From positions 1,280,001-1,344,000 of the forward strand of contig OY969767.1 of NCBI GenBank assembly GCA_963702895.1: a DNA stretch of 64,000 nucleotides, in the 5' to 3' direction. The notes under the pieces were generated by a model, which searched no databases, was not told where the DNA came from, and saw nothing but the letters and a program-made list of their open reading frames with translations. Shown piece after piece: positions 4,251 to 42,515 of the stretch. Every line of letters starts with the position of its first letter. Positions within the stretch are counted from its first letter, which is position 1. Both the position numbers and the translations under genes were made by a program. The stretch comes from an uncultured Elusimicrobia bacterium (GTDB lineage: Bacteria; Elusimicrobiota; Elusimicrobia; 2-01-FULL-59-12).

Positions 4251-6937
4251 CAGTTTTTCCCCGCCGCCTTCATATCGGCCCAGTTCCTGCCGACCTTGAG
4301 ATCAACGACGAGCGGTATGCTGAGTTTTAAGGCGCTTTCCATAATCGCGCGGATCACGTTCTGTGAGTTCACCATCGCCCCTTGCGGTATCTCAAAAAGA
4401 AGCTCGTCGTGTACCTGCACGAGCATGGCTCCGTCCCAGAGACCGGAGGCGCGCTCATGGCAAAGTTTGATCATCGCAAGCTTGATCGCGTCAGCGCTTG
4501 TCCCTTGGATGGGCGTATTCATGGCCGTGCGCTCCGCAAAAGCGCGGACAACCCCGTTGGGTGAGTTAATCTCCGGGAGATACCGAATGCGGCCAAGAAG
4601 TGTCCGAACAGAACCATCCTTGCGGGCTGATTCTATCGTTTTTTCAATCCATGCTTTCACGCCCGGATAGCGGGCGAAGTAGCTCTGGATGTGACGCTCC
4701 GCATCTTGTACGGGTATCCCTAACTGCTGCGACAGGCCAAAGGCGGAGATGCCGTAGACAATTCCAAAGTTAATGGATTTGGCGACCCGGCGAATTTCGG
4801 GCGTGACTTGGTCGGGTCTTGTTCCAAAGATCTCACAAGCGGTTGCGCTATGAATATCTTCACCCTCCCGAAAGGCCCGGCATAGCGCCTCATCGCCTGA
4901 GATATGGGCGAGCATTCTTAAGTCAATCTGCGAGTAATCGGCGGACAAGAGGAGATGGCCGTCTTTCGGGATAAAGCAGCGCCGGATGCGTCGACCCAGG
5001 TCGGTGCGGACAGGGATGTTCTGGAGGTTCGGATTGGAGGAGGAAAGCCTGCCCGTGGCAGCGACGGCCTGATTAAAGGAGGTATGCACACGGTCTTCCG
5101 GCCCCCCGGCTGCCGAGAGAAGACCCTCGATGTAAGTGGACTGCATCTTTTGGATCTCTCGATAATCGATGAGGCGTTTCGGAAGCGGGTGCTTGTCCGA
5201 AAGTTTGGTCAAAACCTCCTCATCGGTCGAGGTCCCGGTTTTCGTTCTCCTGATCACCGGGAGCTTGAGTCTTTCAAAGAGGATGGTTGAGAGCTGCTTG
5301 GGTGAATTCACGTTAAACGTCTCGCCAGCCAGGACATAGATCTCCTGTTCCATGCGCCTCGCCTGCTCGCCAAGCTCCCGGCCCAGAGCCTCGAGATACG
5401 GCCTGTCGATCCGGATGCCGGCGCGCTCCATATCTGCAAGGATCCTTACCAGGGGCATTTCCATATCGTCAAACAAAGATCTGAGCTGCTTCTCGTCAAG
5501 CATGGGGGCGAACTTTTCGGCGAGGCGCAAGGTCATGTCGGCGTCAGCGCAGGCATAGTCCCTCGCGTTTTCGATTGGCACAGTCTCCATCGTAATCTGC
5601 TTGGCGCCTTTGCCAATCATCTGCTCAAGGGTTGTCATGGGCTCTCCAAGAAGATCTGCAACCAGATCTTTGAGACCATGATTGTTGCGTGAAGGGTTCA
5701 GAACATAGGACGCAACCATCGTGTCGAAGGAGAGCTTGTTCACCTGGAATCCGTGCGATTCGAGCACCTGAACATCAAATTTGAGGTTATGCCCACAGAG
5801 ATGGACATTCGGATTCTGGAACAGGGCGGAGAGATGTCTCCGGACCGTCTCCATGGGTATCTGCTCCGTTGCTCCTAAGACCTGGTGCCCGACGGGGATA
5901 TAGCAGGCAGAGCGGTCCTGATAAGACAGGGAGATGCCCACCAGACGCGCTTGAAAAGGGTCGAGGCCCGAGGTCTCTGTATCAAGGGCAAGAAGGGGCG
6001 CCGTCGCGGCCTGGCTGAGCCAGCTCTTCAGCGCGCTTTCTGATGTGAGGGCGATGTAGTCGCGGTCTTTTGTGTCGATCGGTTGGCCAGATGTTGGAAG
6101 AAGTTCTTTGGCAAGGGCCAGGAATTCCAGTTTTTTAAGAAAAGGGAGCAAGGCCTCTTGTTTGGGAGATACAGAACGGCACTTCTCCCAATCAACCGTT
6201 AGAGGCACAGACTTATCGAGCTTGACCAGTTCTCGGCATTGCCGAGCCAGGTCGGCATGTTTCAGGAGGAGCATGCCGGTCTTGCCTTTGACCGTGGAAG
6301 CGTTCTCCAGAAGAGCGTCCAGAGTGCCATATTCCTGGATCAGTTTGACAGCCGTCTTCTCCCCTATGCCGGGAACACCTGGAATATTGTCACCCGAGTC
6401 TCCCATGAGCGCGAAAACGTCTGGGATTTGCTCTGGCTGAACACCATAACGCGCTTGCACTTCCATAGAACTGTAGAGGAGCGACTTTTGTTCGTTGAGG
6501 ACCTTCACCGCTTCCCCGACAAGCTGAAGAACATCCTTATCGCCCGAAACGATCACGACGTCCCATCCTTGTTTCCGACCTTCCCGCGTCAAATGGGCAA
6601 TGAGATCATCGGCCTCATAGCCGTCCCTCTCGAACCCAGCCAAGTTCAAAGCTTCGATCGCCTCGCGTGCGAGCGGAAATTGGCTCACCAGCGACGGGTC
6701 CGTCTCTTTTCTTGTGGCTTTGTAAGCTTCGAAAACTTCGTGGCGGAACGTTGGAGCGGCTGTATCAAAGCAAACAGCCAAGTAGTCCGGTTTATACTCT
6801 TTCTTGATCTTTAAAATCATTCGCATGAAGCCATAAACCGCATGGACAGGCTGGCCCTCCGAGGTCGTAAGAGGCGGCAGAGCGTGAAAGGCACGGTGGA
6901 GGTAGGCATGCGCGTCAATCAGGAACAAACTAGGCAT
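4250..6937 (-). CDS. polA: DNA polymerase I
   Basis: 5'-3' exonuclease (EADD, GDKD), 3'-5' exonuclease (DTET), polymerase motifs DYSQID, AKSINFGIVYG and QVHDEL. Confidence 0.99.
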   Translation of the reverse strand: MPSLFLIDAHAYLHRAFHALPPLTTSEGQPVHAVYGFMRMILKIKKEYKPDYLAVCFDTAAPTFRHEVFEAYKATRKETDPSLVSQFPLAREAIEALNLAGFERDGYEADDLIAHLTREGRKQGWDVVIVSGDKDVLQLVGEAVKVLNEQKSLLYSSMEVQARYGVQPEQIPDVFALMGDSGDNIPGVPGIGEKTAVKLIQEYGTLDALLENASTVKGKTGMLLLKHADLARQCRELVKLDKSVPLTVDWEKCRSVSPKQEALLPFLKKLEFLALAKELLPTSGQPIDTKDRDYIALTSESALKSWLSQAATAPLLALDTETSGLDPFQARLVGISLSYQDRSACYIPVGHQVLGATEQIPMETVRRHLSALFQNPNVHLCGHNLKFDVQVLESHGFQVNKLSFDTMVASYVLNPSRNNHGLKDLVADLLGEPMTTLEQMIGKGAKQITMETVPIENARDYACADADMTLRLAEKFAPMLDEKQLRSLFDDMEMPLVRILADMERAGIRIDRPYLEALGRELGEQARRMEQEIYVLAGETFNVNSPKQLSTILFERLKLPVIRRTKTGTSTDEEVLTKLSDKHPLPKRLIDYREIQKMQSTYIEGLLSAAGGPEDRVHTSFNQAVAATGRLSSSNPNLQNIPVRTDLGRRIRRCFIPKDGHLLLSADYSQIDLRMLAHISGDEALCRAFREGEDIHSATACEIFGTRPDQVTPEIRRVAKSINFGIVYGISAFGLSQQLGIPVQDAERHIQSYFARYPGVKAWIEKTIESARKDGSVRTLLGRIRYLPEINSPNGVVRAFAERTAMNTPIQGTSADAIKLAMIKLCHERASGLWDGAMLVQVHDELLFEIPQGAMVNSQNVIRAIMESALKLSIPLVVDLKVGRNWADMKAAGKN

Positions 6938-6949
6938 GGGAAGTTAGAA

Positions 6950-7477
6950 CTAAAGCTTTTGGGCGACTGCTGATTTAAGGTCGTTTTCCCACATGGCCAC
7001 CATCTCTGGGGAGAAGCCCTGATAGACTTGCGTCACGCGGCCCCGGGGATCCACAAAAACGAAGTGAGGAAGTCCCTCCACCTGGTAGTCGGCCGGAACC
7101 GTGGAATTCCCTGCAAAAAGAACAGGATAAGTCATCTTATATTGCTGAACAAATGGAAACACGCTGGCAGGATCATCATCCATATTGAGCCCAAGGACGA
7201 TGAGACCTTCATCCTTATGGCGTAGATAGAACTCCTGCAACAGGGGGATAGACATCCGGCATGGTCCACACCAGGTCGCCCAGAAATCGAGCAAAACAGG
7301 GCGACCTCGATAGTCGTCGAGACTCACCCTCTGTCCTGATAAGTCCTTCAGTTCGAAGTTTGGCGCTGCTCCAAGCTCGTGTCTGCGGTCTGAGGAGCAT
7401 GCCAAGAGCATCCCCATGGACAAGGCAAAAGCAGCGACAACGCGCTTCCCTGAGCGCTTAGCCGACGAGGAGCGCAT
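6950..7477 (-). CDS. TlpA/ResA-family thiol-disulfide oxidoreductase lipoprotein
   Basis: LLAC lipobox and FWATWCGPC. The ORF-track N-terminus overlaps trxA, so the start is placed near 7477 (uncertain). Confidence 0.88.
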   Translation of the reverse strand: MRSSSAKRSGKRVVAAFALSMGMLLACSSDRRHELGAAPNFELKDLSGQRVSLDDYRGRPVLLDFWATWCGPCRMSIPLLQEFYLRHKDEGLIVLGLNMDDDPASVFPFVQQYKMTYPVLFAGNSTVPADYQVEGLPHFVFVDPRGRVTQVYQGFSPEMVAMWENDLKSAVAQKL

Positions 7478-7784
7478 CCAGTCGTTTCTTGATTTCGAGT
7501 TTGGGATGAACACCGACGAGCTGATCCACGACCTTCCCCCCCTTAAAAAAAAGCAGGGTCGGAATAGCCGAGATGCGAAAACGGGTCGCCACCTGCGCGT
7601 TGTCATCGGTATTGAGCTTTCCCACTTTGATCTTCCCGTCATACTCCTTGGAGAGCTCCTCCACCAGGGGTGAGAGCATCCGGCAGGGGCCACACCAAGG
7701 AGCCCAAAAATCGACCAAAACAGGCCGGTCTGACTTGACCACTTCGCTCTCAAAACTTGCGTCCGAGAATTGCATCTCAGCCAT
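7458..7784 (-). CDS. trxA: Thioredoxin
   Basis: FWAPWCGPC; AAGGAG RBS before ATG 7784; 108 aa. Confidence 0.96.
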   Translation of the reverse strand: MAEMQFSDASFESEVVKSDRPVLVDFWAPWCGPCRMLSPLVEELSKEYDGKIKVGKLNTDDNAQVATRFRISAIPTLLFFKGGKVVDQLVGVHPKLEIKKRLDALLVG

Positions 7785-7893
7785 ACAACGCTCCTTTTGT
7801 AGCACGATTCGTCATGGGTGCAACCATGCTCACCCACATCATTGCTTGGAATGATACCAATTCAGTAGAGCCAGAAGAAGTGCTTCTGACTTT

Positions 7894-7910
7894 TGTAACA
7901 TGCTTGTAAC
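7894..7910 (+). promoter_or_regulatory. Candidate OmpR/PhoB-family response-regulator box
   Basis: TGTAAC-N5-TGTAAC direct repeat (11-bp period) in the divergent intergenic region. Confidence 0.45.
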
Positions 7911-7935
7911 ATTCATCAGTATCCTTAATAGTGCG

Positions 7936-8280
7936 ATGGGACTGCATCAACGAAATAAGAGGGTTTTGTTCAACATCAGCATCCTCGTTCTCATGCTGGG
8001 GAGCTTGGTGTTGACGTACGCGTTGTCCAACGAATATACGGGTCATTTCTCCCCCAGCGACTACATTACGGTGACGCTGGAACGCGCCCAGGCAGAACTC
8101 GAAGAGCTCCAAGGTGCCCTGCGGAACGCGTCCCTGACGCCCCGAGAATTCCTCAACAAAGTGCACCGTATCTCCTCCCGAAACAAGCGGGTCAAGCAAA
8201 ACCGGAACACCCCTGAGGCTAACGATGAGCACGTCATCGATATCACGGGTCTGGAGCTTCCCGGTACTCAGAATAAATAA
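7936..8280 (+). CDS. Hypothetical single-pass membrane protein with coiled coil
   Basis: Only plausible ORF in the gap; one hydrophobic helix followed by an amphipathic helix. Confidence 0.6.
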   Translation: MGLHQRNKRVLFNISILVLMLGSLVLTYALSNEYTGHFSPSDYITVTLERAQAELEELQGALRNASLTPREFLNKVHRISSRNKRVKQNRNTPEANDEHVIDITGLELPGTQNK

Positions 8281-8289
8281 TCTAAGGAT

Positions 8290-8736
8290 TTACTTTTCTG
8301 CTTGACGTATCGCCTGAAGAACACCTTGCGGGCTGTCGAGCTTGCAGAGTTTGTCCATGAACCCCTTCTTTTGAAACAGCGCGGAAACATTCGCAAGAAA
8401 CGCGAGATGCTCCTTCATATTATCCGAGGGGCCCAAGAACAAGACATAAATTTGAATAGGGGCGCCCCCACTCTGCGGGTCATGGACACCGGTTGGGCAG
8501 ATGCCGATGGCCGCCTTGAGTTGCTTGAGACCCTCGAGCCGCGCATGAGGAAGAGCGAGCCCTGGAGCGATGATGGTTGAACCCATTTCTTCCCGCGACA
8601 AGATGGCGTTGAGGGCCGACGAAGGGTCAGCAAGATCCAAGAGTGCGATGAGACTGCCCAGAGCCTGCCGTTTCGAAGGGCCTGCCGTAAAAAAGGCGAC
8701 GGTTGAATTGGAAAGATAGTCAGAGACTTTTTTCAT
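8290..8736 (-). CDS. PTS EIIA (Ntr/fructose-type) domain protein
   Basis: REEMGSTIIAPGLALPHAR with the phospho-accepting His. Confidence 0.9.
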   Translation of the reverse strand: MKKVSDYLSNSTVAFFTAGPSKRQALGSLIALLDLADPSSALNAILSREEMGSTIIAPGLALPHARLEGLKQLKAAIGICPTGVHDPQSGGAPIQIYVLFLGPSDNMKEHLAFLANVSALFQKKGFMDKLCKLDSPQGVLQAIRQAEK

Positions 8737-8747
8737 CGATTCCTGTC

Positions 8748-10709
8748 TCACGTCTGGCCCGTGGCTTCCATCCGAAGACGAATAGGCAGAATCACGGCTT
8801 CCAAGCCATTAAACAGTAATTTTCTCTGGAGCGCAAAAGAGGTCTGGTTGTGGAGCAGCCTGGTCCAGAAGGTTTCTCCCTCAAACGCCAATTGGCCCAT
8901 GAAATACACCTTCTTGTTCCATTCCATGGCCACCTGCTGACAGAGAAGGTCTAATTCCTCGATGACATCCGTCCCGAGTCCTGCCTTGGACTCGGCGTAA
9001 AATCCCATTTGATTGGCCAGCTTCACATATTTCGCGAGGTCCTGCTCAACACTTTGCATCAAGGCATCGATCTCCGCACGCCCCTTGAAGCGACCACTAT
9101 CAATGACGCCAACAGCCAGAAAGACGAAGTTCTTGAAATGACCCGGAAAGAAACGGTGAATGGCAAGGATCGAGTGTATCCCGATGCCGTTGTACCCGCT
9201 CACCATAAGAACGGCCGTGGGTGCGTCTTTTATTTTAGACGGCGGAGTTGCGATCGAAGGGAGCGGGAGGTCTCCTAGAATTTGATTTAAATCGCGCAGT
9301 GACATCAACGTGTGCTGATAATGTCTACGGATCATCACACAAGCCACAATGAAGCCCCCTGTCACAACGAAGGTGACCCACCCACCTTCTTTAAACTTGA
9401 CGACAGCGGTCAGGGCCAGGATGGCGAAGGTCACCAGCATCCCTGTGGCATTTACGATAAAACCGTAGACCCATCCTTTTCCCTTGGTTTGCACCCAGTG
9501 CAGAACCATGCCCAGTTGTGAAAGGGCGAAGGTGAGAAACACGTTGATGCTGTACATGACGATCAGGATCCGCACGGAGGCGTGAGTGTAGAAGATCATC
9601 CCAAGGGCCAGGAGGCCCATGAGGAGCACACCGTCTTTCATCACGAGGCGTTCGCTCAAGTTGGTAAAGCGCCTGGGTAGCCAGCGATCGACGGCCATGT
9701 TGGCCAAAACCCGAGGACCCCCTAGAAAACCTGTCTGTGATGCCACAATGAGCAGGGCCCCTTCAGAGACGAGCGTGATCAGAAGCCAGGCATGTCCGCC
9801 TCGCCACTGGTTCGTAAAGCTTTCGATCAGACTCGCGTTCAGTGTTTGGCCATGGATAGGCTGAACATTGTTGAGGAGATAATTGATTAAAAGACCTCCG
9901 GCCGTAAAGGAAAGGGAAATGGCCATATAGAACATCGTCTTTTTGGCGGTGGTCACGCGGGGTTCGCGAAGAAGCTGGACGCCGTTACTGACGGCCTCGA
10001 TCCCCGTAAACGTCCCACCACCCAAAGCAAAGGCTCGGAAGAGGATCATCGCAACGGCCCACAAACCGAGCTGAGACACTCCGGACTTCGTCTCATGAAC
10101 AGCGCTGGTCACCATCTGCGGCAAAGCGCTCCCGTGGGTGAAGATGCCATAGAGAATAAAGAACGTGTGCGTGAGCACAAACACCACAAAAATGGGGGTC
10201 AGAATGAGTACCGATTCTTTGATCCCACGCAGGTTTAAAATGATGAGAACCAGGAGACAGAAAACCACAGCCGCAAATTTCCACTCAAGCCACCCATTGG
10301 GCAGAAAGCTGAACATCGCGTCCATGGCCGAGGCGATCGAGATAGCAATGGTCAAAATATAGTCGACGAGCAACGCACACCCTGAAACGAGGCCTGCGCC
10401 AGAACCAAGCAACTTGGTCGTGACGAGGTAACCTCCACCGCCCGAAGGAAAGGCCTCAATAATCTGGGAGTAGCTCGCCGAAAGCAAGAAGACGGTCGCT
10501 ATCACCATGATGGCAAGCCACAAGGTGAGGTGAGTATGGGAGCCGAGACTTAGGAAAGCTTCTTCAGGGCCGTAACAGGACGAGGAAAGTCCATCTGCGC
10601 CCAATCCGATCCAGGCAAAAACAGCAATCAGGGACAGATGATGAAAAATACGGGGGTCAAGAGGATTCTTTCTCTTGCCAAACACAATTGTTTTAAGCTT
10701 TTCTACCAC
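8748..10709 (-). CDS. APC-family permease, KimA-like (probable K+ or amino-acid transporter); current GTG start lies in the IS end
   Basis: ADGLSSSCYGPEE and TGIEAVSNG motifs, about 12 TM segments plus a cytoplasmic C-terminal domain. The native ATG is displaced to 11988-11990 by the IS. Confidence 0.88.
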   Translation of the reverse strand: MVEKLKTIVFGKRKNPLDPRIFHHLSLIAVFAWIGLGADGLSSSCYGPEEAFLSLGSHTHLTLWLAIMVIATVFLLSASYSQIIEAFPSGGGGYLVTTKLLGSGAGLVSGCALLVDYILTIAISIASAMDAMFSFLPNGWLEWKFAAVVFCLLVLIILNLRGIKESVLILTPIFVVFVLTHTFFILYGIFTHGSALPQMVTSAVHETKSGVSQLGLWAVAMILFRAFALGGGTFTGIEAVSNGVQLLREPRVTTAKKTMFYMAISLSFTAGGLLINYLLNNVQPIHGQTLNASLIESFTNQWRGGHAWLLITLVSEGALLIVASQTGFLGGPRVLANMAVDRWLPRRFTNLSERLVMKDGVLLMGLLALGMIFYTHASVRILIVMYSINVFLTFALSQLGMVLHWVQTKGKGWVYGFIVNATGMLVTFAILALTAVVKFKEGGWVTFVVTGGFIVACVMIRRHYQHTLMSLRDLNQILGDLPLPSIATPPSKIKDAPTAVLMVSGYNGIGIHSILAIHRFFPGHFKNFVFLAVGVIDSGRFKGRAEIDALMQSVEQDLAKYVKLANQMGFYAESKAGLGTDVIEELDLLCQQVAMEWNKKVYFMGQLAFEGETFWTRLLHNQTSFALQRKLLFNGLEAVILPIRLRMEATGQT

Positions 10710-11978
10710 TGGTGTCCGGTAAAAGTTAGCCGAAGCTTAGCCATAGCTGAGGCTCCATAGTTCGAACTTTTGAAAGATTCTTTTCGGGCATACGCAATAG
10801 ATCGATGAGACTGAGCCGGTCGAGAAGGGTATTCTGAACCAACCGGTGCAGCAAGAACAGCGAACGCTGGAATCGTGTCTGGAACTTGATGTAGGCCAGG
10901 AGCAGGAAATAGCACAAGGCCACCCAGATTTGGGTAAAGACGGCATTTTTGGAAGTGCCGAGGAACGTTTTGATTTTGAGATGCTGCTTGAGCCACTTGA
11001 AGAACAGCTCGATCTGCCAACGGGCCTTATAGATTTGGGCAATGGTGAAAGCGGCCAGTTTGAAGTTATTGGTCATAAACTGGTAAGTGATGGCGGTGTC
11101 GGCATCGTAGTAGCCGATGAGTCGTAAAGGTTTCTTGTATTTCGTCTTGGTGCGTGGGCCTGTAAGCTCAATGGTGCGATCGTACAACAGGCCGTTTTTT
11201 AAGGGAATTTCTTGCTGTCCGGTGATGCGGCAGGTGAGGTTGTCTTTGGCACGGGTGACGAAGAAAGAGCCGAGATCGTCGATCTGACGGTACCAGCCGT
11301 AATCCATGTAGCCGCGGTCGAAGACATAGATGCTGTCCGGTTCTAAGGGAAAAAGACGTTTGGCGGCATGGTCGAAGCACTTTCCATCGGTGATGACGGC
11401 AAAGGAAGGGATTTGGCCACGCAAGTCCAGTTGGCAATGCAGTTTGATCGCTCCTTTGGCCTGTTTAAAGGTGGCCCAAGGGAAAAGGTTCAGGCACAGT
11501 TCCATGTTCGTGGAATCGAAGCAGGTCACTTTGTGTTTAAAACGGAACTGATGCTTAGGCGCGATGGCTTGGCACCGATCCAGCAGGTGATAGAAGAGCT
11601 TTTCCATGATGCGCCAGTCGCGCCCAGCGTTAGCGTCAGCCAGGGTAGAACGTTTCACTGGCGGCAGCCCCAAGTGATAGAGCTTGGGTTGTTGCGTGCC
11701 TAAAGCCGTCTGGATGTCACGCAGGCTTGTTTTACCGCTGGCCTGAGCACAGAGGAGTGTCGTGAGCTGGTTCCAAGTCGAGAATTTTTTAACGTAGGCG
11801 TCGCCGCCGAAGCCAGAAACGGCTTGGTCGAACTGATGTCGTGGTAAAAGGAGAAGCAGTTGGTTCATTATGGTGTTAGAATGCATGAGCGAAATCCTCC
11901 CTCGGACAGAATGGTTTGCTTGGTCGCAATCATTCTACCGAACCAGGGGGATTTCGCATTTTTAACCGGACACGAGTG
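10707..11978 (-). mobile_element. IS4-family insertion sequence, 1272 bp
   Basis: Terminal IRs CACTGGTGTCCGGTAAAA / TTTAACCGGACACGAGTG; 9-bp target duplication CTTTTCTAC at 10698-10706 and 11979-11987. Confidence 0.95.
10726..11886 (-). CDS. IS4-family DDE transposase (DUF4372-type N-terminus)
   Basis: FDST, FDRGY and YKARWQIELFFKWLKQ (YREK signature); intact 386 aa. Confidence 0.96.
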   Translation of the reverse strand: MHSNTIMNQLLLLLPRHQFDQAVSGFGGDAYVKKFSTWNQLTTLLCAQASGKTSLRDIQTALGTQQPKLYHLGLPPVKRSTLADANAGRDWRIMEKLFYHLLDRCQAIAPKHQFRFKHKVTCFDSTNMELCLNLFPWATFKQAKGAIKLHCQLDLRGQIPSFAVITDGKCFDHAAKRLFPLEPDSIYVFDRGYMDYGWYRQIDDLGSFFVTRAKDNLTCRITGQQEIPLKNGLLYDRTIELTGPRTKTKYKKPLRLIGYYDADTAITYQFMTNNFKLAAFTIAQIYKARWQIELFFKWLKQHLKIKTFLGTSKNAVFTQIWVALCYFLLLAYIKFQTRFQRSLFLLHRLVQNTLLDRLSLIDLLRMPEKNLSKVRTMEPQLWLSFG

Positions 11979-32473: not shown

Positions 32474-32710
32474 ATGGCAAAAGATCTCATTCATTCCGAC
32501 CCGGCGATCATGATGGGGAAGCCCGTGATCAAGGGAACCCGCATCACCGTAGAGCTTGTTCTGGAGAAGTTGGCGGCAGGCGAAACTGTTGAGACCCTTC
32601 TCAAGTCTTATCCCCACCTGAAAAAAGAAGGCATTCGCGCCGCAATCGCTTACGCCTCCAAGGTCATGAAAATGGACGTCGTCCATCCCGTTTCCTACAA
32701 GGCGGCATGA
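32474..32710 (+). CDS. DUF433 antitoxin (VapB45-like)
   Basis: DPAIMMGKPVIKGTRITVE...YPHL; AGGAGG RBS. Confidence 0.93.
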   Translation: MAKDLIHSDPAIMMGKPVIKGTRITVELVLEKLAAGETVETLLKSYPHLKKEGIRAAIAYASKVMKMDVVHPVSYKAA

Positions 32711-33057
32711 AGTTCTTTGCTGATGAAAGTATCGAACATGAAGTCGTCAAGCGCCTTAGGCAAGACCACCATCAAGTCCTCCACGTTTCAGAAATCCAGC
32801 CGGGCTTGAACGATGATGATGTGCTGGCAAGAGCGCGTGACGCCCAGTCCATCCTCCTGACCCATGACAAAGACTTCGGGGCGCTCGTCTATCAGAAGAA
32901 ATATCTGACCACAGGGGTGGTCCTTTGCCGATTGCAAGACGCCAAGGCGGAAAAGAAGGCTGACCTTATTGCGGACATGATCCACATGTATTCCGAAGAA
33001 CTGCACGGCGCGTTTGCGGTACTTACGGAAAGCGAATTCCGCATCCGCAAACTTTAA
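32707..33057 (+). CDS. DUF5615 PIN-like toxin (VapC45-like)
   Basis: MKFFADES, DDDVL and LLTHDKDFG motifs; ATGA overlap with the antitoxin. Confidence 0.92.
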   Translation: MKFFADESIEHEVVKRLRQDHHQVLHVSEIQPGLNDDDVLARARDAQSILLTHDKDFGALVYQKKYLTTGVVLCRLQDAKAEKKADLIADMIHMYSEELHGAFAVLTESEFRIRKL

Positions 33058-35324: not shown

Positions 35325-35755
35325 GGTGCTGGTTGGCGCGCTTTTTCGACTTCTTCGGTCAAAACGCGCTCCTCCTCTTCGCGGATTTTGCGCTGGAGCT
35401 CGTCCAGGCCGAACATCAGAGTGGGTTCACACGTGAGACGGTCTTTCGGGTTGAAAGTGGCCTGAGCTTCGGCAAAACCTTTTTTCATCATGACCTCAAG
35501 CTCCACATTATGGGATTCATCCTCCAAGGGGTAGACGTAGGCGGCGAGATTGAGCCGGGGATCGAGGTACAGGAGAAAATGCTCATAGTAGAACGTGTGG
35601 GAGCATTCCGGGCAGAAAAGGATGTTGATTTCCCCTCCCAAAAGCATCTCTTTGAGCTCCGGGTCCTGTCGGGCATTGATCGAGGTCCAGACGGTGCCCT
35701 TGAATTCCTTGCCGCACTGCGCGCAGTCGACATCGACTTCGTTATGAACGCTCAT
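35321..35755 (-). CDS. CpXC domain zinc-ribbon protein
   Basis: CAQCG...SIN...CPEC...FLYLD pattern. Confidence 0.85.
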
Positions 35756-35779
35756 CGAGAGGCATTATAGTACGTCAGC

Positions 35780-36229
35780 TCAGAAGGGAGCTTTGCCGGG
35801 GGCATTGGCCTGACGGGCAAGGCGAGAAAGGATGATCGAAAGACCGATGGCGCCAACGATCGAGCCGGCGATCATCGCTCCCGCTATCCAAAATGACGAA
35901 AAGACATGTTCAGTCAAGGAGCGGTAGAGAAACGTTAAAGCACCATGCAAGAGGGCGCCTAAAACAGCGCCGAGGGAGAATGAACGGCCAAAGTCATAAG
36001 GGCGATGAAAATAAGATGTGCGTTGAATAATCATGGCCGTGACGATGCTCAGGGCCGCCCCCGTCAGAAGAGCGGGCAGCCATGTCTCGACGTAAGCAAA
36101 AAGCACCACTTGGTCGAGGTGACCGCGGGCAAAGTCTGGAAGACCTTTGATCCAAAGCAGGAGAAACGTGACGAGGGGGATCGCCACCATACACCCCAAT
36201 GCAAAGATAACACGGTCTTTGATTTTCAT
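35780..36229 (-). CDS. Hypothetical 4-TM membrane protein
   Basis: Four hydrophobic segments; fills the gap between neighbours. Confidence 0.75.
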   Translation of the reverse strand: MKIKDRVIFALGCMVAIPLVTFLLLWIKGLPDFARGHLDQVVLFAYVETWLPALLTGAALSIVTAMIIQRTSYFHRPYDFGRSFSLGAVLGALLHGALTFLYRSLTEHVFSSFWIAGAMIAGSIVGAIGLSIILSRLARQANAPGKAPF

Positions 36230-36330
36230 GCGATTAGAATACAAAAGTTGCTTATGACGAAAGCAAGCTTCTCCTCGGGTCGACCAGCGTGCCTGGCACC
36301 ATAGGTCATGTTGTAATGGAAGACGGATGA

Positions 36331-37584
36331 TTATTTAGAAACGGTAACACCTTTTGGGAAATAGCGGTCAAACAAGAACGCCACGATCAGACAGGCGCTG
36401 CTGCCCATGATCAGCGCCGGAGTCGGCCCCACACTGCCCGCGAGACCGCCCGCCAAGAGACCACCCAATGGGCCTATGCCTTCCATGGCCACGGTATAGT
36501 AGCTGATCACCCGTCCGCGCTTATCGTCTTCAGCCAGGTGTTGCAGTGTGGTATTGGCCAACAGCATATGTGTCATAACGGTGAAGCCGACCACCCCGAG
36601 CATGATCAGAGACAGCCACAGGGTATGGGATAAGGAAAACACAATAAACGCAAGTGCGAACAAGCCCACCGATGCTGGTAGGCCACGGCTCAGGCTGGCC
36701 ACTTCCCGACGACCGGCCATGAACAACGTGGCGGCAAGGGCGCCAAAGCCAATAGCAGCCATGAGTTGCCCCAGCGTAGACGGCCCGCCACCCAGAACAC
36801 TTTTCGCAAAAACAGGCATCAAGACCACGAATGAAAAGCCCATGAGGTTAAACAAGGACAACAGCATCAGCACAGAACGAATCGGCCGGACTCCGGAAAC
36901 ATAGTCAAAACCGACTTTCAATTCATTCCAAAGATCACTCTTCGGAGCCTGGATTTGTTCGGCACGGATACGAATGACCATCAGGCTGACCAAGACCGCC
37001 AAGAAGCTGATGCCGTTGATCAAGAAACAAGGACCTTCCCCTACGCGAGCGATCAGCCAGCCCGCGATCAGCGGCGCAACTAAGCGCACTGAATTAAAAA
37101 CCATGGCGTTGAGCGCTATCGCATTACCTAGAACTGCCTTGCTCTCGACAATATCGAGGAGGAAAGCCTGGCGCGCGGGAGTGTCGACAGCGTATACACA
37201 TCCAATGAAACCACTCAGGACGAGGACATGCCAGGGCACGATACTCCCGCTGAATGTAAGAGCGGCAAGCGCGAATGCCTGCGCCATGGCCAATGACTGA
37301 GTTGCCAGCAGGACTCGTCGCCGGGGCCAGCGATCGATAAGGACCCCCGCCACCGGACTCAGAAACAAACTGGGTATTTGGGTAACGAACACGATCAACC
37401 CCAGCATCAGTGCCGAATCCGTCAGGCGATACACCAACCAGCTCATGGCGATCTGCTGGATCCAGCTGCCCATGAGTGAGGTCCCCTGGCCAAAGAAATA
37501 AAGCCGGAAGTTTTTGTAGGCGATTGCCCGGAACATCGGACTGATGCGTGATTGAAGTTGCAAAGCCAATGACGTTACCTCCAT
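36331..37584 (-). CDS. MFS transporter (H+ antiporter/exporter-like)
   Basis: NFRLYFFGQ..S..GSWIQ, GVLIDRWPRR and PARQAF motifs; 12 TMs; 26 nt downstream of the radical SAM gene. Confidence 0.93.
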   Translation of the reverse strand: MEVTSLALQLQSRISPMFRAIAYKNFRLYFFGQGTSLMGSWIQQIAMSWLVYRLTDSALMLGLIVFVTQIPSLFLSPVAGVLIDRWPRRRVLLATQSLAMAQAFALAALTFSGSIVPWHVLVLSGFIGCVYAVDTPARQAFLLDIVESKAVLGNAIALNAMVFNSVRLVAPLIAGWLIARVGEGPCFLINGISFLAVLVSLMVIRIRAEQIQAPKSDLWNELKVGFDYVSGVRPIRSVLMLLSLFNLMGFSFVVLMPVFAKSVLGGGPSTLGQLMAAIGFGALAATLFMAGRREVASLSRGLPASVGLFALAFIVFSLSHTLWLSLIMLGVVGFTVMTHMLLANTTLQHLAEDDKRGRVISYYTVAMEGIGPLGGLLAGGLAGSVGPTPALIMGSSACLIVAFLFDRYFPKGVTVSK

Positions 37585-37610
37585 CGATTCTTAGACGGGC
37601 AAGAAGTACG

Positions 37611-39518
37611 TTACGCAGCTGCGGTCTTCGAATCTATCTGAAGCGCTGCGTAGCGGCGCTTGGCATGTTCGGGGGAGATCGCGACCGCTAGCGAGAGATA
37701 CTGGTTCCCCTCCTGAAACATCAGCTTCAACGTGCAAAGCTCCTTCAGTGTGTCTTTAAGGATGGCTTCGCTTCCGCCGTTCTGAGTGTAGCGCTTAAGC
37801 AACTGATCAAAGCTGCGGATTTCTGTGCAAAACAGATAAAGGTCACGGTCTTGCTCATCAAGAACGACTTCGCTCAGGCCTCCCCCACGTCTATCGAAGA
37901 TATTTAAGAAGGTCTCGCCATCCTGATAGCTCAGCGTGTTTTCGGGATACGAGTAGTAGGAACCCTTCCACTGTTCACATGCATCATGAACCGGTGACCA
38001 GTCTGCGCTGGGCAGCGTTGAATCAAAGTCGAGCTCGTAGGTGTTAATTCGCCTCCACACATCGTCTGGCATGCCAACGCGATACATTTCACGGTTACGG
38101 ACGTTCGTAATGCCTACCTCTTGGCGCACTTTATCCACCGCCGTGTCAATGAAGAGCGCGAATTTGGATATGTTGAGAGGTTCATAGGAGATCGCGAAGT
38201 CGAGAATGTTCCTGCGAGTCTCTTCGATCTCCTCTTGAGTGGTGCCTGGAAATTCCGTGAGCAGATTGGATTGACTCGTGATTCTGAGTTCAGCGCATGT
38301 CCTGAGAGCCTGCAGGTTCTGAATGGTAGACGTGCCTTTGCCGATGCGGCGAAGATACGCGGTCGACAGCCCCTCGATACCCATTTGGGTATTCTTGAGT
38401 CCGGCTTCCTTCAGTAAGAAAAGCTCATAGGGCGTAATACTAGCGCGAATCTCATGAAAGAATTGATAATCCCGGCGATGAGCCATGAGCTCCTGCGAGA
38501 ACGCCTTAACGCCCTTGGTTCGTAGGACATCATCAACGAAAATGAAATTTACGTTCCGATACCGGCAGCTGAGCTGATCCATTTCCGCAACGATGCGCGG
38601 GATGGACCGCTCGCGGTAACGTTCATATTGCGTGTTGACTGTGCAGAATTGGCATATCGACTTGGTATTCTTGGTTTGTGCCGTACGATTCCACCAGCAC
38701 CCGCGGGAACCCTGAATTGGGATCGACCAGACCACGTTGTGCTGCTCGGCAAGAGCCACATATTCTTCGTAGTTGGGCGGAGGCAGGTCATCGAAGGGAG
38801 CCGGCTCGGGCCTCTGGACCACGTCCTCTCCGGAAGGAAGGCGTCTTAGCACTCCCGGAATGGGGCAATCAGCCACGCGCTGCGCGGCAACGGCATCCAG
38901 CAATGAAACAAGCGGACGCTCTCCTTCCCCTTGAACGATAAATTCGATCCACGGATACTCGCGCATGATGGACGGGCCCACCCGCCCTGCAAGAGTCATA
39001 CCGCCGAGGATCACTTGCGTTGTCGGCGACATCTCCTTGAGCCTCTGGGCGACTTTCAGATTGAGAAAGAGCTGTGCATAGGACGTCGTGAACCCGACCA
39101 GCTGAGTGCCAGCAAGCTGCTGAGCTGTGCGCTCGACGAGCAACGAGAGAAGTCCGCTCAAGCGGTCAAAGGTGTTCCCCTGCTTCTGAAGAGCAGCGGG
39201 AATTCCTTTGTGCCAGGCTTCGAAGTGGCCCCGTATGGATGCGGTCTTTGAAGGATAGAGGAGTTGCAGAGCCAGCAACTCACCTACTTGGTGACAGTGA
39301 GATGCGATGTGCTTATAGAGGTCCGCTCCGAGTCGTTCCGCGAAGTCGACATAGAGGTGGTGAGTGGAGACGTTCCACTCGGGACGCTCCTTGCGAACGA
39401 ACGCAGAGAGAACGCCCAGTGCGGCAGACGGGCGATCACGATGCGACCATGGGAGCGAAACAAGAGCCAGACTGAGGGGTCGAATTGACATGACTATCGA
39501 TACCCCAGGTTTGTTCAT
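37611..39518 (-). CDS. B12-dependent radical SAM RiPP maturase (TIGR03975-like C-methyltransferase)
   Basis: N-terminal cobalamin-binding domain (LVSLPW..RPSAALG, LVGFT, VILGG, GEGE), SRGCWW-x12-CQFC cluster motif, FVDD, QMGIE, and a C-terminal beta3-alpha3 RRE-like region (DRR...YLSLA). Alternative start at 39491. Confidence 0.9.
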   Translation of the reverse strand: MNKPGVSIVMSIRPLSLALVSLPWSHRDRPSAALGVLSAFVRKERPEWNVSTHHLYVDFAERLGADLYKHIASHCHQVGELLALQLLYPSKTASIRGHFEAWHKGIPAALQKQGNTFDRLSGLLSLLVERTAQQLAGTQLVGFTTSYAQLFLNLKVAQRLKEMSPTTQVILGGMTLAGRVGPSIMREYPWIEFIVQGEGERPLVSLLDAVAAQRVADCPIPGVLRRLPSGEDVVQRPEPAPFDDLPPPNYEEYVALAEQHNVVWSIPIQGSRGCWWNRTAQTKNTKSICQFCTVNTQYERYRERSIPRIVAEMDQLSCRYRNVNFIFVDDVLRTKGVKAFSQELMAHRRDYQFFHEIRASITPYELFLLKEAGLKNTQMGIEGLSTAYLRRIGKGTSTIQNLQALRTCAELRITSQSNLLTEFPGTTQEEIEETRRNILDFAISYEPLNISKFALFIDTAVDKVRQEVGITNVRNREMYRVGMPDDVWRRINTYELDFDSTLPSADWSPVHDACEQWKGSYYSYPENTLSYQDGETFLNIFDRRGGGLSEVVLDEQDRDLYLFCTEIRSFDQLLKRYTQNGGSEAILKDTLKELCTLKLMFQEGNQYLSLAVAISPEHAKRRYAALQIDSKTAAA

Positions 39519-39537
39519 TTTTCAAGGAGTTAAATAA

Positions 39538-39588
39538 CGAAACGTGAGAGCTCTGGGGACCTACCGATCCACAGGCTCTCACGTTTCG
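39538..39588 (-). promoter_or_regulatory. Strong intergenic stem-loop between the peptide gene and the radical SAM gene
   Basis: Perfect 14-bp stem CGAAACGTGAGAGC/GCTCTCACGTTTCG with further internal pairing; a second 7-bp hairpin lies at 39592-39614. Confidence 0.8.
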
Positions 39589-39632
39589 CAACTGTCGAAA
39601 AAACTTATCGACAGACCATCGCCAGCATCAGA

Positions 39633-39764
39633 CTAATCGCCCCAACAAATATTGACTGGTTCAACCTTTCTTTCGAATGATTGGCTCGCTGCTTTGAGTT
39701 CCTCCGCTGAGAGACTTGGGGTGTCCCTGGTGACGGTGATTTTCTTGGTTTCTTGTGATTCCAT
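39633..39764 (-). CDS. Putative RiPP precursor peptide, 43 aa
   Basis: MESQETKKITVTRDTPSLSAEELKAASQSFERKVEPVNICWGD*. AAAGGAGG RBS 8 nt before the ATG, TAGAAT -10-like box at 39804-39809, co-directional with the rSAM gene. Below the ORF-track size cutoff. Confidence 0.85.
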   Translation of the reverse strand: MESQETKKITVTRDTPSLSAEELKAASQSFERKVEPVNICWGD

Positions 39765-40323
39765 ATCGGCATCCTCCTTTCACGAGTTATTTTCGACGGA
39801 CGAATTCTATCGACAATATCCGATACGACCTGGTGATATCGATATCTTCTGATTGAGAATGATCCATCATGATTGGCTTACAAACTTTCCTCGAGTCTAA
39901 CAATCGAATATTACGATTGCGTTACGGGTGAGATATATTGTGTTGGAAGAGCAAGGACATCATCACATTCTCCACGTCTTTTAGGCTGGATTCTTATCTT
40001 TACCCGCGCCCGAAGAACCTGATCGTCATTTCACGGCTCTTTGAATCCCATGGATGATCGTTCTCAGTTGTTGGGAGGAAATCTCATTTCTGAGGGTTAA
40101 GGACGTACAGAGGCCATGAATTGCGTACGCGCGCAGGCGACTTAAGAAACGAATGACCTCGCGATATCCATCCGACTCTTAAAAGCTTGGCTCGCAACAT
40201 CTTCAAGTCCACGACTCCATCGATTCGACCGCAGGACACCAGGTATGTTCCTCTCATCCCTCATACGAAAGGGGTATTGCGCGTCCTATGAGCTCTAAGG
40301 AATCGGACATCGCTCATGGCTCG

Positions 40324-41433
40324 TCACCCCCCGCGGCGGCAGGAGGCACCGTCCGAAATGATCGTAATGGTCCCGAGGCGGTCTGTTCGGAGAGTTTGAT
40401 CCGCGAGAGAAGGATAGCGTTCCGGGCGCGAGTGGCTGTAAGCGTTGGGACCTACCGAGAGTCCGATCCAATCCACCTTCCGCATCATGCTTTCCCAGGC
40501 AGGATCGAGTTGGTCGCCGTGGTGCGGCCAGTTGGCAAAACAGAACTTCAAGCCGGCCGACTGCAAGCGTTCTTGCGCGCGTTCGATGACCCGGGCTTGG
40601 ACCGTGGGGGCCAGATCACCGCAGAGAAGCATCGCTGTTTTGCCGAAGCTCACCCAAAGCACAAGGTCATTTTCGTGCATCGATCCCTTGATTGATGGAG
40701 GATTGAGAACTTCCACCTCGATTCCCCCCGGACCAGACAGGCGCATGCCCTGGCGAACGACACGAACTTCTGTGCCGCGTTTTTGCAGGCGCTCGAGGGT
40801 CCGGGCGATGTCGGTCTGACCAGCTGCATCCCCACTCCAATAAAGCGTTTGGATAGGCGGTTTTCTCCAGTGGGCATATCCGCCGCTATGATCGGGATGC
40901 GCATGCGTCAAAAACGCCGCATCGATTCGCCTTACACCTAACTCGCGCATTTTCGACCGAATCTTCGGTAAAGCGTCTTTCGGGCCTGAATCAATGAGCG
41001 CAATCCATGAGTGACGCTCATCCTTTGACTGTAAGAGGAGGCAAGACCCGTAGCCCACATCGAGCATGTGAAGCGTGAGTTCCTGGGCTTGAGCCTGGGA
41101 CAGCAGCAGCGCTAAGGTTGACAGAACAATGAGCAGGGATGCCTTTCCCCTCTCCCGCCGAAGGTGGGAGAGGGCGGTGCCCGGCTTGTGGGCAAAGGGT
41201 GAGGGCACGGCCTTGCCCTCATCCCAACCTTCCCACTTACAACCGTGGGACCTGCGCCCCGACGGGTCGCCTGACGCGACCGTAGGGGCTGTCCCTCCAC
41301 CCGCAGGGTGGACGGGACGCTCTATAGGGAAATTGAGGAAGCGCGGGTCTCCCGACACGTTGGTCGGGAGAAGGGGTCCTGACAGCGCCCGCTGCGCGCT
41401 AAAGTGGTGAAGGCTAAGCATTGTTTGCGACAA
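40324..41433 (-). CDS. Secreted ComEC/Rec2-like metallo-beta-lactamase-fold hydrolase (start uncertain)
   Basis: Signal peptide LLIVLSTLALLLSQAQA, then DVGYG, THAHPDH, LLCGD, PHHG, SVGPNAYSH and RTD..G motifs. Confidence 0.85.
   Translation of the reverse strand: MSQTMLSLHHFSAQRALSGPLLPTNVSGDPRFLNFPIERPVHPAGGGTAPTVASGDPSGRRSHGCKWEGWDEGKAVPSPFAHKPGTALSHLRRERGKASLLIVLSTLALLLSQAQAQELTLHMLDVGYGSCLLLQSKDERHSWIALIDSGPKDALPKIRSKMRELGVRRIDAAFLTHAHPDHSGGYAHWRKPPIQTLYWSGDAAGQTDIARTLERLQKRGTEVRVVRQGMRLSGPGGIEVEVLNPPSIKGSMHENDLVLWVSFGKTAMLLCGDLAPTVQARVIERAQERLQSAGLKFCFANWPHHGDQLDPAWESMMRKVDWIGLSVGPNAYSHSRPERYPSLADQTLRTDRLGTITIISDGASCRRGG
41148..41375. repeat. Nested multi-hairpin palindromic element
   Basis: Seven stem-loops, e.g. 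CCCTCTCCC..GGGAGAGGG, TGAGGGCA..TGCCCTCA, TCCCAC..GTGGGA and CTCCCGAC..GTCGGGAG; related to the 30518-30594 element. Confidence 0.85.
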
Positions 41434-41480
41434 TAGGTCTCTATGATGATAGCCAATTCTCGCTCGGCGCGGTGTTGTCC

Positions 41481-42035
41481 ATGAAGAATCAACCCAAACC
41501 GACTCTTTGGCTGCCGCCGCTTGTTCTGACCCTCGTGATGTGGATGACAGTCGGCTACGTCCGCCCCATCACCGAGTGGCTGCGTGCGCGCGGGATCTTG
41601 GCGAACTCGATCTGGACAATCTTTGCCCTGATCGCCGCAGTCGTGATTTGGACATCATGGAAGAAGGGTCAGCCGAGCGGAACCGGCGGCGGAAACGACA
41701 CACTCCGATGCATCTTTCTTCTGGCAACGAGCGTGGCCACCTACATCGCCCTGATGCTGGTGATGGTTGTGGCACCGGAAGAGCGCTTCCACTTCATCCT
41801 GGTGGGTCTCGTGACGTACTTGTACTTTCGACTCTTTGAAGCGCTCTGGCCCACAACGTGGTTTGTTCCCTTCTTCGGTTTCCTAGCTGGCGCGCTGGTC
41901 GGCGGGATCGAAGAAGGCCTCCAAAAGTTCTATCCCTCACGCTTCTTTGACTGGCGGGATGTCGGGATCAATGTTCTGGCCGCGTTCATGGCAACGTTGT
42001 TGATCCACTCCTTGAAAGCACGGCGCCGCCGCTGA
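41481..42035 (+). CDS. VanZ-like membrane protein
   Basis: PEERFHF and GGIEEGLQ...PSRFFDWRDVGIN motifs. Confidence 0.85.
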   Translation: MKNQPKPTLWLPPLVLTLVMWMTVGYVRPITEWLRARGILANSIWTIFALIAAVVIWTSWKKGQPSGTGGGNDTLRCIFLLATSVATYIALMLVMVVAPEERFHFILVGLVTYLYFRLFEALWPTTWFVPFFGFLAGALVGGIEEGLQKFYPSRFFDWRDVGINVLAAFMATLLIHSLKARRRR

Positions 42036-42046
42036 GGTCTCTTTCC

Positions 42047-42457
42047 TTACCACATCCTCATCAGTCCGATGAGCGCGACGATCGCCATCACGACCACCAT
42101 CAAAACCAACACCATATTTTCTGTAGAAATGGCTTTTCTTTTCTTTGGTGCTTGTTTGGGTTCTTCAGGTAGCGAGGCGTGTAGTGCTAAACGTTCGAGT
42201 TCGTCTTCAGAGACCTCGCTTTGCTTATACTCTTTGTCATGCATCGCAATGAGGTGCTTGGCTTCCTCAACTTGATCTTCAGGCACCACGACGCGAATTC
42301 CTCCTAAAGCGGGGGTGAGCCATGGATTGAGCCCGGCGAGATGCGAATCCCAGACCCTGGCATGCAGGCCCGCGCTGAAGAGTTTCAGCCGGACAGACTC
42401 CGCTTCCGAAACCGTTTGGGCTCTGTACACAACCTCCCAGCTCAAAGTCCGCTTCAT
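42047..42457 (-). CDS. DUF2007-like signal-transducing protein with C-terminal TM
   Basis: EAESVRLKLFSAGL..., GGIRVVVPEDQVEEA. Confidence 0.78.
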   Translation of the reverse strand: MKRTLSWEVVYRAQTVSEAESVRLKLFSAGLHARVWDSHLAGLNPWLTPALGGIRVVVPEDQVEEAKHLIAMHDKEYKQSEVSEDELERLALHASLPEEPKQAPKKRKAISTENMVLVLMVVVMAIVALIGLMRMW

Positions 42458-42515
42458 CTCAGAATTTCCTCATAGTCTCTACTGTACTTTAAGGACCCAT
42501 TTGAGGCAACAGCAC

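Follow-up and report, generated by a model that had tools for sequence, protein, structure and literature searches.

A B12-binding radical SAM enzyme with an adjoining transporter and a candidate 43-aa precursor peptide in an Elusimicrobia genome

Does the short open reading frame (ORF) that lies upstream of a B12-binding radical S-adenosylmethionine (SAM) enzyme gene encode the substrate of that enzyme? The question is raised by a locus in the genome of an uncultured Elusimicrobia bacterium, a single contig of 2.72 Mb (OY969767.1; 98% complete, GC content 0.57), from which a stretch of 64,000 nt (positions 1,280,001 to 1,344,000, hereafter the window) was analyzed. The locus occupies the minus strand of the window and carries, head to tail, a 43-aa ORF, hairpins, the radical SAM (rSAM) gene, and the gene of a major facilitator superfamily (MFS) transporter. 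An earlier note on the window had proposed that these elements form a minimal system for a peptide that is made by ribosomes and modified after translation (RiPP), and the peptide ORF, its ribosome site, the long hairpin, and the two genes were all found on that strand at the positions it had given. The B12-rSAM and MFS operon is real and intact, and it is probably functional. We put at roughly 50% the probability that this is a small operon, acquired horizontally though not recently, that encodes a RiPP-like pathway, and the assignment of the 43-aa ORF as the putative precursor of the enzyme's substrate stands at about even odds as well. Of the minimal system as it had been proposed, the TIGR03975-type enzyme, in which a domain resembling a RiPP recognition element (RRE) was also found, and the adjoining transporter stood up to analysis; conservation of the precursor did not.

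The enzyme and its adjoining transporter

The 635-aa rSAM ORF was compared with the TIGR03975 profile and scored 319.8 bits (cut-off 281.85, E 3.3e-95), with the match extending over profile positions 2-606 of 606. A search of the whole genome with the same profile returned this protein as the sole match above the cut-off, and the next families, among them BchE, ApyD, BzaD, and HpnR, stayed far under their cut-offs for the window enzyme. The public gene call for the enzyme (P0002) comprises 626 aa, a length that, taken alone, would agree with translation beginning at the second ATG (M10, 39491). A model of the enzyme calculated with AlphaFold2 from 20 homologues (pLDDT 88.2, pTM 0.87; first 11 residues disordered) found its top Foldseek matches in OxsB, TsrM, TokK, and CysS (E 9e-18 to 4e-13, 526-727 alignment columns), and a profile search of PDB sequences agreed with these cobalamin rSAM folds. 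As modelled, the enzyme thus has a cobalamin-binding domain at its N terminus followed by a radical SAM barrel, the architecture of a class B rSAM protein, and the family assignment of the earlier note was correct. Its cysteines C274, C289, and C292 are invariant across a 20-sequence alignment (A1), and the other positions invariant in A1 are likewise intact in the window enzyme.

The C-terminal 113 residues of the enzyme were also modelled alone, on a 34-row alignment (pLDDT 89.6), and gave three strands, three helices, and a beta-hairpin. Compared with 48,161 representative chains, this domain was most similar to the lasso-peptide RRE TbiB1 in complex with its leader peptide (Z 9.1, rmsd 2.1 Å, 75 of 84 residues aligned), and the RRE regions of lasso B1 (6jx3), TigE, MibB, and LynD were also among the matches, in a list in which generic winged-helix repressors reached Z 7-8. 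The domain had no Foldseek match at E <= 0.001. We read it, on its predicted structure, as an RRE-like peptide-recognition module, and this reading fits a published rSAM compendium, since a passage there on RRE-associated rSAM enzymes mentions the PoyB group (PMC10288494). The Pfam B12-binding profile PF02310, which is on record for many homologues, was not detected in the window enzyme at E <= 0.01, and the Pfam PqqD profile was not matched either.

The MFS gene starts 26 nt past the stop codon of the enzyme gene. Its product matched PF05977 (MFS_3) with 195.8 bits (cut-off 27) over residues 21-406, and its scores against TIGR00900 (175 bits) and EntS (102.7 bits) were both under the equivalog cut-offs. 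A co-directional MFS transporter gene beside the rSAM gene, as the earlier note had described it, is therefore present, and the two genes are probably co-transcribed. Genomes of the same genus held only an MFS paralogue type of 32-33% identity, the best homologue among the relatives reached 48%, and many homologues of 50-55% identity are named Candidatus Omnitrophota. The closest counterparts of both proteins, an MFS homologue of 67% (P0125) and an rSAM homologue of 69% identity (P0003), come from the same source, each recorded on one ENA contig of 28,476 bp; apparently they lie on the same contig, and the enzyme-MFS pair is conserved there. Both are truncated gene calls, which suggests frameshifts or sequencing errors.

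The candidate precursor and the alternatives to it

The peptide gene had been described as hidden, which it is not, as exactly this 43-aa protein is already present as a called gene in a public protein collection (P0001). Its frame had the best codon score of the six (0.06 per codon), and a six-frame reading of 39519-40330 revealed no better peptide candidate. The AAAGGAGG ribosome site that had been noted upstream of it was confirmed (Table 1). This sequence has 134 copies in the genome, counting both strands, and 30 of these are followed by a start codon that opens an ORF of at least 30 aa; with so few copies genome-wide, a correctly placed one is unlikely to occur by chance in the spacer of about 800 nt (post-hoc estimate, under 1%). 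The 114-nt spacer between the peptide and enzyme genes had a predicted minimum free energy of -47.9 kcal/mol, compared with -28.2 +/- 3.3 kcal/mol in 200 shuffles (z -6.06), none of which (0/200) was as stable, and its hairpin is present in a single copy in the host genome. Residues of the types methylated by PoyC and MpcB (Val, Ile, Thr, Pro; PMC11285071, PMC10849626) are found in the N-terminal alternating stretch and in the C-terminal hydrophobic end of the peptide; the modified residues cannot be named from the sequence, and the C-terminal heptapeptide as the core is a guess. Prediction of a complex between the full-length enzyme and the peptide gave no verdict (score 0.02, mark 0.32). Since the coding signal of this orphan peptide is ambiguous, its putative role as a substrate rests on position, ribosome site, and hairpin.

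The main support for assigning it as a precursor comes, by analogy, from the recurrence of the order short ORF, often a hairpin, then enzyme at related loci, which were found with alignment A1 as the query (a single-protein scan had found no relative). In many loci of the wider clade, short co-directional ORFs with a basic motif, K-x-K-x-x-x-K-x-G, stand beside the enzyme. In its strict form the motif was matched 23 times in nine loci (L011, L012, L090, L093, L099, L107, L109, L111, L144), in all 23 cases on the enzyme strand, some of them upstream and some downstream of the enzyme. A looser form, sought in the 137 loci with at least 300 nt upstream, occurred on the enzyme strand in 25 of them, compared with 4 for the opposite strand; false positives such as DnaJ-like and arginine-rich frames are included in the 25. 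The basic-motif ORFs (L011:4505-4783 and 10707-11057; L093:387-596, 1888-1932, and 2239-2355; L090:633-722 and downstream of 2816; L012:342-491; L111:4479-4550 and 4748-4819; L109:468-608) derive mostly from Acidobacteriota and soil metagenomes. In the acidobacterial loci, the motif and the segment preceding it are repeated within one ORF or across several small ORFs, with a short and in many cases hydrophobic tail after each copy, an arrangement that in sequence resembles a multi-core precursor. Twelve of these peptides gave no meaningful Pfam or NCBIfam match, and the motif strings had no match in the literature searched. Hairpins were predicted in the same position as in the window for two of the three acidobacterial loci folded (L090, z -2.78; L093, z -2.32; the third, L011, had z -1.28); hairpins separating the enzyme gene from the last peptide gene were weaker in L011, L027, and L033 and absent from the folds of L025, L103, and L091. 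The basic motif is absent from the window peptide and has three loose matches in the whole genome, none of them near the operon, so that the peptides of the relatives are, to judge by their sequences, a different and uncurated family. The comparison with homologues, which the earlier note had suggested as a check, was accordingly favorable in part: short co-directional ORFs do recur beside the enzymes, but none is similar to the window peptide.

The accessory genes of the related loci range from none (L011, L090) to JmjC/cupin, haem-oxygenase-like, YcaO, YcaO-TfuA, and non-ribosomal peptide synthetase (NRPS) genes. In L091, whose enzyme is near that of the window in the tree, an NRPS module with condensation, adenylation, and peptidyl carrier protein domains and a TubC-type docking domain (6020-9685, minus strand) adjoins the enzyme gene, and immediately upstream of the latter there is an acidic ORF of 50 aa that has a GGAGG site. 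A further observation concerns Desulfobacterales, Nitrospiraceae, and other loci, in which proteins of 96-121 aa are encoded upstream of related enzymes (L025:4543-4890, L028:4545-4892, L103:947-1264, L027:4480-4845, L033:3506-3796, L040:4481-4810). They have a signal-peptide-like N terminus and contain a related basic motif two or three times, and by these features may be secreted multi-site substrates.

Several results weigh against a peptide pathway at the window locus. For the 43-aa peptide, an exhaustive HMMER search of 1.84 billion representatives returned nothing but the peptide itself, and a word-indexed protein search gave no relative; its best tblastn match in 180 related loci (E 0.4) fell outside any upstream peptide. 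No similar peptide lies upstream of the enzyme in its close homologues, and the genome itself encodes no peptide of the basic-motif type. The peptide also has no Pfam or NCBIfam family at E <= 0.01, no usable match in a Protein Atlas search, and no paralogue in the host genome. Its codon score ranks at the 10th percentile among real 43-codon windows and at the 81st among spurious ORFs, 19% of those of similar size scoring as well. A good ribosome site is only modestly predictive in this genome, where a usable start comes after AAGGAGG in 134 of 549 cases, compared with 83-90 of 447-567 for four control heptamers. An MFS_3-like gene was found near the enzyme in 3 of 179 other loci (L020, L110, L076), and in three of the relatives searched (G013, G020, G010), MFS homologues of 43-48% identity were found but no full-length rSAM match. 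CobS (PF02654) was not found in the host genome (the control matched 9 of 14 genomes), so cobalamin would need to be imported, which points to a reliance on corrinoids taken up from outside; that cobalamin is available in the cell is implied by four further B12-rSAM-like genes, located at about 979-1020 kb. Finally, TIGR03975-like enzymes are not always RiPP enzymes, since the cobalamin rSAM methyltransferase DscE, which a passage of PMC12858407 compares with the polytheonamide enzymes, methylates the free non-ribosomal peptide discodermin, and L091 has an NRPS gene nearby.

The most far-reaching interpretation would make the 43-aa orphan the precursor of a new RiPP family, with a single RRE-bearing B12-rSAM enzyme, MFS export, no dedicated protease, and a pathway present in no relative searched. 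We hold it tentatively, at clearly less than even odds. If it were true, the enzyme clade would have repeatedly switched precursor families, with sister enzymes serving multi-core basic-motif peptides. Much of the same evidence could be explained if the enzyme and the transporter work together but the 43-aa ORF has arisen by chance in the operon's 5' leader. The actual substrate would then be encoded elsewhere, unknown or lost, which would leave an orphan tailoring enzyme. The orphan status of the peptide, a codon score that 19% of spurious ORFs equal or exceed, the 104 of 134 genomic AAAGGAGG sites that precede no ORF of at least 30 aa, and the quite different peptides used by relatives all agree with a chance ORF, but that view has to contend with the lack of any better candidate in 39519-40330 and of any basic-motif-type peptide in the genome, with an ORF, ribosome site, and terminator-like hairpin that match the layout beside related enzymes, and with a source gene caller that accepted the ORF. 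On balance we consider a chance ORF rather unlikely.

No NRPS condensation domain was found in the genome, 98% complete and in a single contig. This result bears on another possibility, namely that the enzyme methylates a small molecule, a non-ribosomal peptide, or a surface glycoconjugate that is exported by the MFS pump. The absence of such a domain weakens a role like that of DscE, whose action on free discodermin (passage in PMC12858407) would otherwise be a precedent, as would the NRPS gene next to the enzyme in L091, one of the nearest loci in the tree. MFS_3/EntS-like pumps, to go by their family names, typically move small molecules; against this, no biosynthetic genes flank the operon, and the enzyme has kept its RRE-like domain, to which the most similar known structures are those of leader-peptide binders. 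We therefore regard a substrate of this sort as improbable. More improbable still is a translation-coupled attenuator made up of the small ORF and the two hairpins, which would control read-through into the enzyme and transporter genes, the ORF product not being a substrate. It has no positive support beyond geometry (the ORF stops about 18 nt before the first hairpin, and a U-rich stretch lies after the second, shortly before the enzyme gene begins), and it is opposed by the lack of an alternative anti-terminator pairing in the predicted folds, of a terminator-like site scored at the hairpin, of a run of one regulatory codon in the ORF (by reading), and of an Rfam match, as well as by a length of 43 codons, which is long for a leader peptide, judged by classical attenuators.

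Layout, surroundings, and origin of the operon

If the operon encodes a RiPP-like pathway, as we prefer to read it, a promoter in the AT-rich upstream region would drive the 43-aa ORF, and the two hairpins would act as a leaky terminator or a stabiliser, so that the peptide message would exceed the enzyme message. The enzyme would bind the 43-aa peptide via its C-terminal RRE-like domain, as the fold suggests, and, by analogy with PoyB/PoyC and MpcB, would use a [4Fe-4S] cluster, SAM, and methylcobalamin to C-methylate unactivated side-chain carbons. The MFS_3 transporter, by its adjacency and apparent co-occurrence, would export the product, and removal of a leader, if any, would fall to a housekeeping peptidase, no dedicated protease being encoded. 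The features of the locus are listed in Table 1.

Table 1. Features of the operon and its upstream region (positions are those of the window)
Feature	Position	Strand	Basis or remark
AT-rich, ORF-poor region upstream of the operon	39781..40323	-	GC 0.43-0.45; presumed promoter/regulatory region
Shine-Dalgarno-like AAAGGAGG	39773..39780	-	8 nt 5' of the small-ORF ATG
43-aa ORF, candidate precursor peptide, orphan	39633..39764	-	ORF listing; public gene call P0001
Small hairpin, 7-bp stem	39592..39614	-	About 18 nt 3' of the peptide stop codon; predicted folds
Large imperfect hairpin, then U-rich stretch	39537..39589	-	Candidate leaky terminator/processing site between peptide and enzyme genes
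TIGR03975 B12 radical SAM enzyme, 635-aa ORF	37611..39518	-	TIGR03975 score and predicted fold
Fe-S cluster cysteines C274, C289, C292 (Cx14Cx2C)	38643..38699	-	Invariant in alignment A1
C-terminal RRE-like winged-helix domain, residues ~527-604	37707..37940	-	Predicted structure match
MFS_3/EntS-like transporter, presumed exporter	36331..37584	-	PF05977 and TIGR00900 scores
154-aa membrane-protein ORF, co-directional	35780..36244	-	86 nt 3' of the MFS gene; no Pfam family

The region upstream of the operon was found to be AT-richer, as the earlier note had it: GC in 39600-40200 is 0.43-0.45 compared with 0.57 for the genome, in which the AT-rich stretch upstream of the small ORF (about 550 nt) has a single copy. 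A promoter scan revealed no sigma-70-like site on the minus strand. The terminator scan did not pick up the large hairpin as a terminator-like site, nor did it find such a site between the MFS gene and the 154-aa membrane-protein ORF, whose membership in the operon is uncertain. An Rfam search of 35500-42500 at E <= 1 gave no match, and hence no cobalamin riboswitch.

A Pfam scan of 13 neighbouring ORFs detected unrelated domains in 12 of them (within about 6 kb, ABC-F, DUF5615/PIN-like, GIDE, LemA, UPF0047, CpXC, metallo-beta-lactamase (MBL) fold, VanZ-like, DUF2007, and LexA; in addition, a 23S-rRNA intervening-sequence protein and a thiolase) and no Pfam family in one. Protease, YcaO, P450, and MNIO genes were not found among these 13 ORFs, so that both the unrelated surroundings and the absence of such genes, as claimed before, are confirmed. 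The synteny of the flanks was uninformative, the MBL-fold gene being matched in 1 and the UPF0047 gene in 4 of 10 relatives, whose assemblies are fragmented. Two of the neighbours may be mentioned in their own right. The MBL-fold protein upstream of the operon (40324-41433, minus strand) has two partial copies of its residues ~18-97 elsewhere in the genome, with 74% and 63% identity and an internal stop in one; from their sequences, they may represent a gene fragment or a module that recurs. The small DUF5615/PIN-like protein, encoded at 32707-33057 on the plus strand and thus a few kb from the operon, is possibly the toxin half of a toxin-antitoxin pair.

As for the origin of the enzyme, a full-length match was found among 41 relatives in its own genome only, the others having just the rSAM core at <= ~33% identity. 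Likewise, its own genome was the only one among 393 of the class to reach E <= 1e-60, and among 401 genomes of the phylum eight others reached E <= 1e-40, all with 26-29% identity. Identity was 46-49% to proteins of Acidobacteriota metagenome-assembled genomes and soil metagenome contigs, and 38-44% to those of many Myxococcota. In a FastTree phylogeny of 109 full-length sequences, the window enzyme grouped with L091, L110, and the acidobacterial trio L011/L012/L090, with moderate local support (84-92), and sequences of the same phylum fell in a distant clade. Since no ortholog was found in the 393 genomes of the class and the nearest relatives are acidobacterial (~48%), the enzyme gene was probably acquired horizontally. 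The acquisition would not be recent, because in codon score (0.20 per codon) and in GC content at third codon positions (0.63-0.65) both the enzyme gene and the MFS gene resemble the rest of the genome.

Comparison with known systems

The earlier note had called the type of system undescribed, which is too strong, as antiSMASH already has a TIGR03975 rule, described in part of PMC9426513. In that study, antiSMASH calls of this kind were dropped as likely false positives, and an expressed example of such a call appears in a passage of PMC12350317. As it stands, the window locus is an ordinary "RiPP-like (TIGR03975)" call plus an unverified orphan ORF, a kind of locus already flagged by genome-mining tools. 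If the peptide is the substrate, it would be among the smallest self-contained B12-rSAM peptide pathways, with one peptide, one enzyme, and one pump, and so minimal a set would be easy to reconstitute and useful for studying how TIGR03975 enzymes choose their methylation sites.

With PoyB and PoyC of the polytheonamide (proteusin) pathway, the window enzyme shares the TIGR03975 family and the architecture of B12-binding and rSAM domains, to which its C-terminal peptide-recognition-like domain is added as a likeness, and radical C-methylation of unactivated side-chain carbons would be the expected common chemistry. The cysteines are spaced differently, as Cx14Cx2C in the window enzyme and Cx7Cx2C in PoyC, the latter according to a passage of PMC11285071. 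In contrast to the proteusins, the window peptide has no NHLP or Nif11 leader, judged by the Pfam and NCBIfam searches described above, and the 13 neighbouring ORFs include no rSAM epimerase, dehydratase, or N-methyltransferase; the locus has a single tailoring enzyme and a candidate precursor of 43 aa, whereas that of the proteusins is long. The bottromycin pathway needs a YcaO enzyme, a P450, and other enzymes. Neither of the two named is adjacent at the window locus, and the shared trait, comparing by description, is the C-methylation of a ribosomal peptide by B12-rSAM enzymes (passage in PMC11285071).

The closest characterised small system is that of clavusporin (mpc) from Streptomyces clavuligerus, in which, according to a part of PMC10849626, a transporter and an S9 peptidase are encoded together with a 39-mer precursor, a B12-rSAM enzyme, and a DUF5825 protein, the product being a short beta-methylated peptide. 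The two loci are alike in being small operons that combine a single B12-rSAM methyltransferase and a transporter with a short precursor, a candidate one in the case of the window. They differ in phylum and in cysteine spacing (Cx7Cx2C in MpcB, same source), and also in that mpc has a separate, required DUF5825 protein and an S9 peptidase, neither of which is adjacent at the window locus. The C-terminal region of the window enzyme gave a weak, sub-threshold match to DUF5825 (E 0.011, 16 bits, cut-off 25), and a search of the whole host genome for this family was uninformative, as its control matched 0 of 14 genomes.

The closest enzymes with flanking DNA are those of the acidobacterial basic-motif loci (L011, L012, L090, L093, and others), at 46-49% identity. 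These loci have the same layout of one or more short co-directional ORFs, a spacer often with a hairpin, and the enzyme gene, and L011 and L090 are as minimal as the window locus. They differ in that their peptides carry the basic motif, often repeated, which the window peptide does not, and in that none has an MFS_3 gene beside the enzyme. The enzyme clade is thus coupled to very different peptides, including in Acidobacteriota the repeated basic-motif precursors, which are absent from Pfam and NCBIfam; this precursor family is at least as promising as the window locus and may be the better lead.

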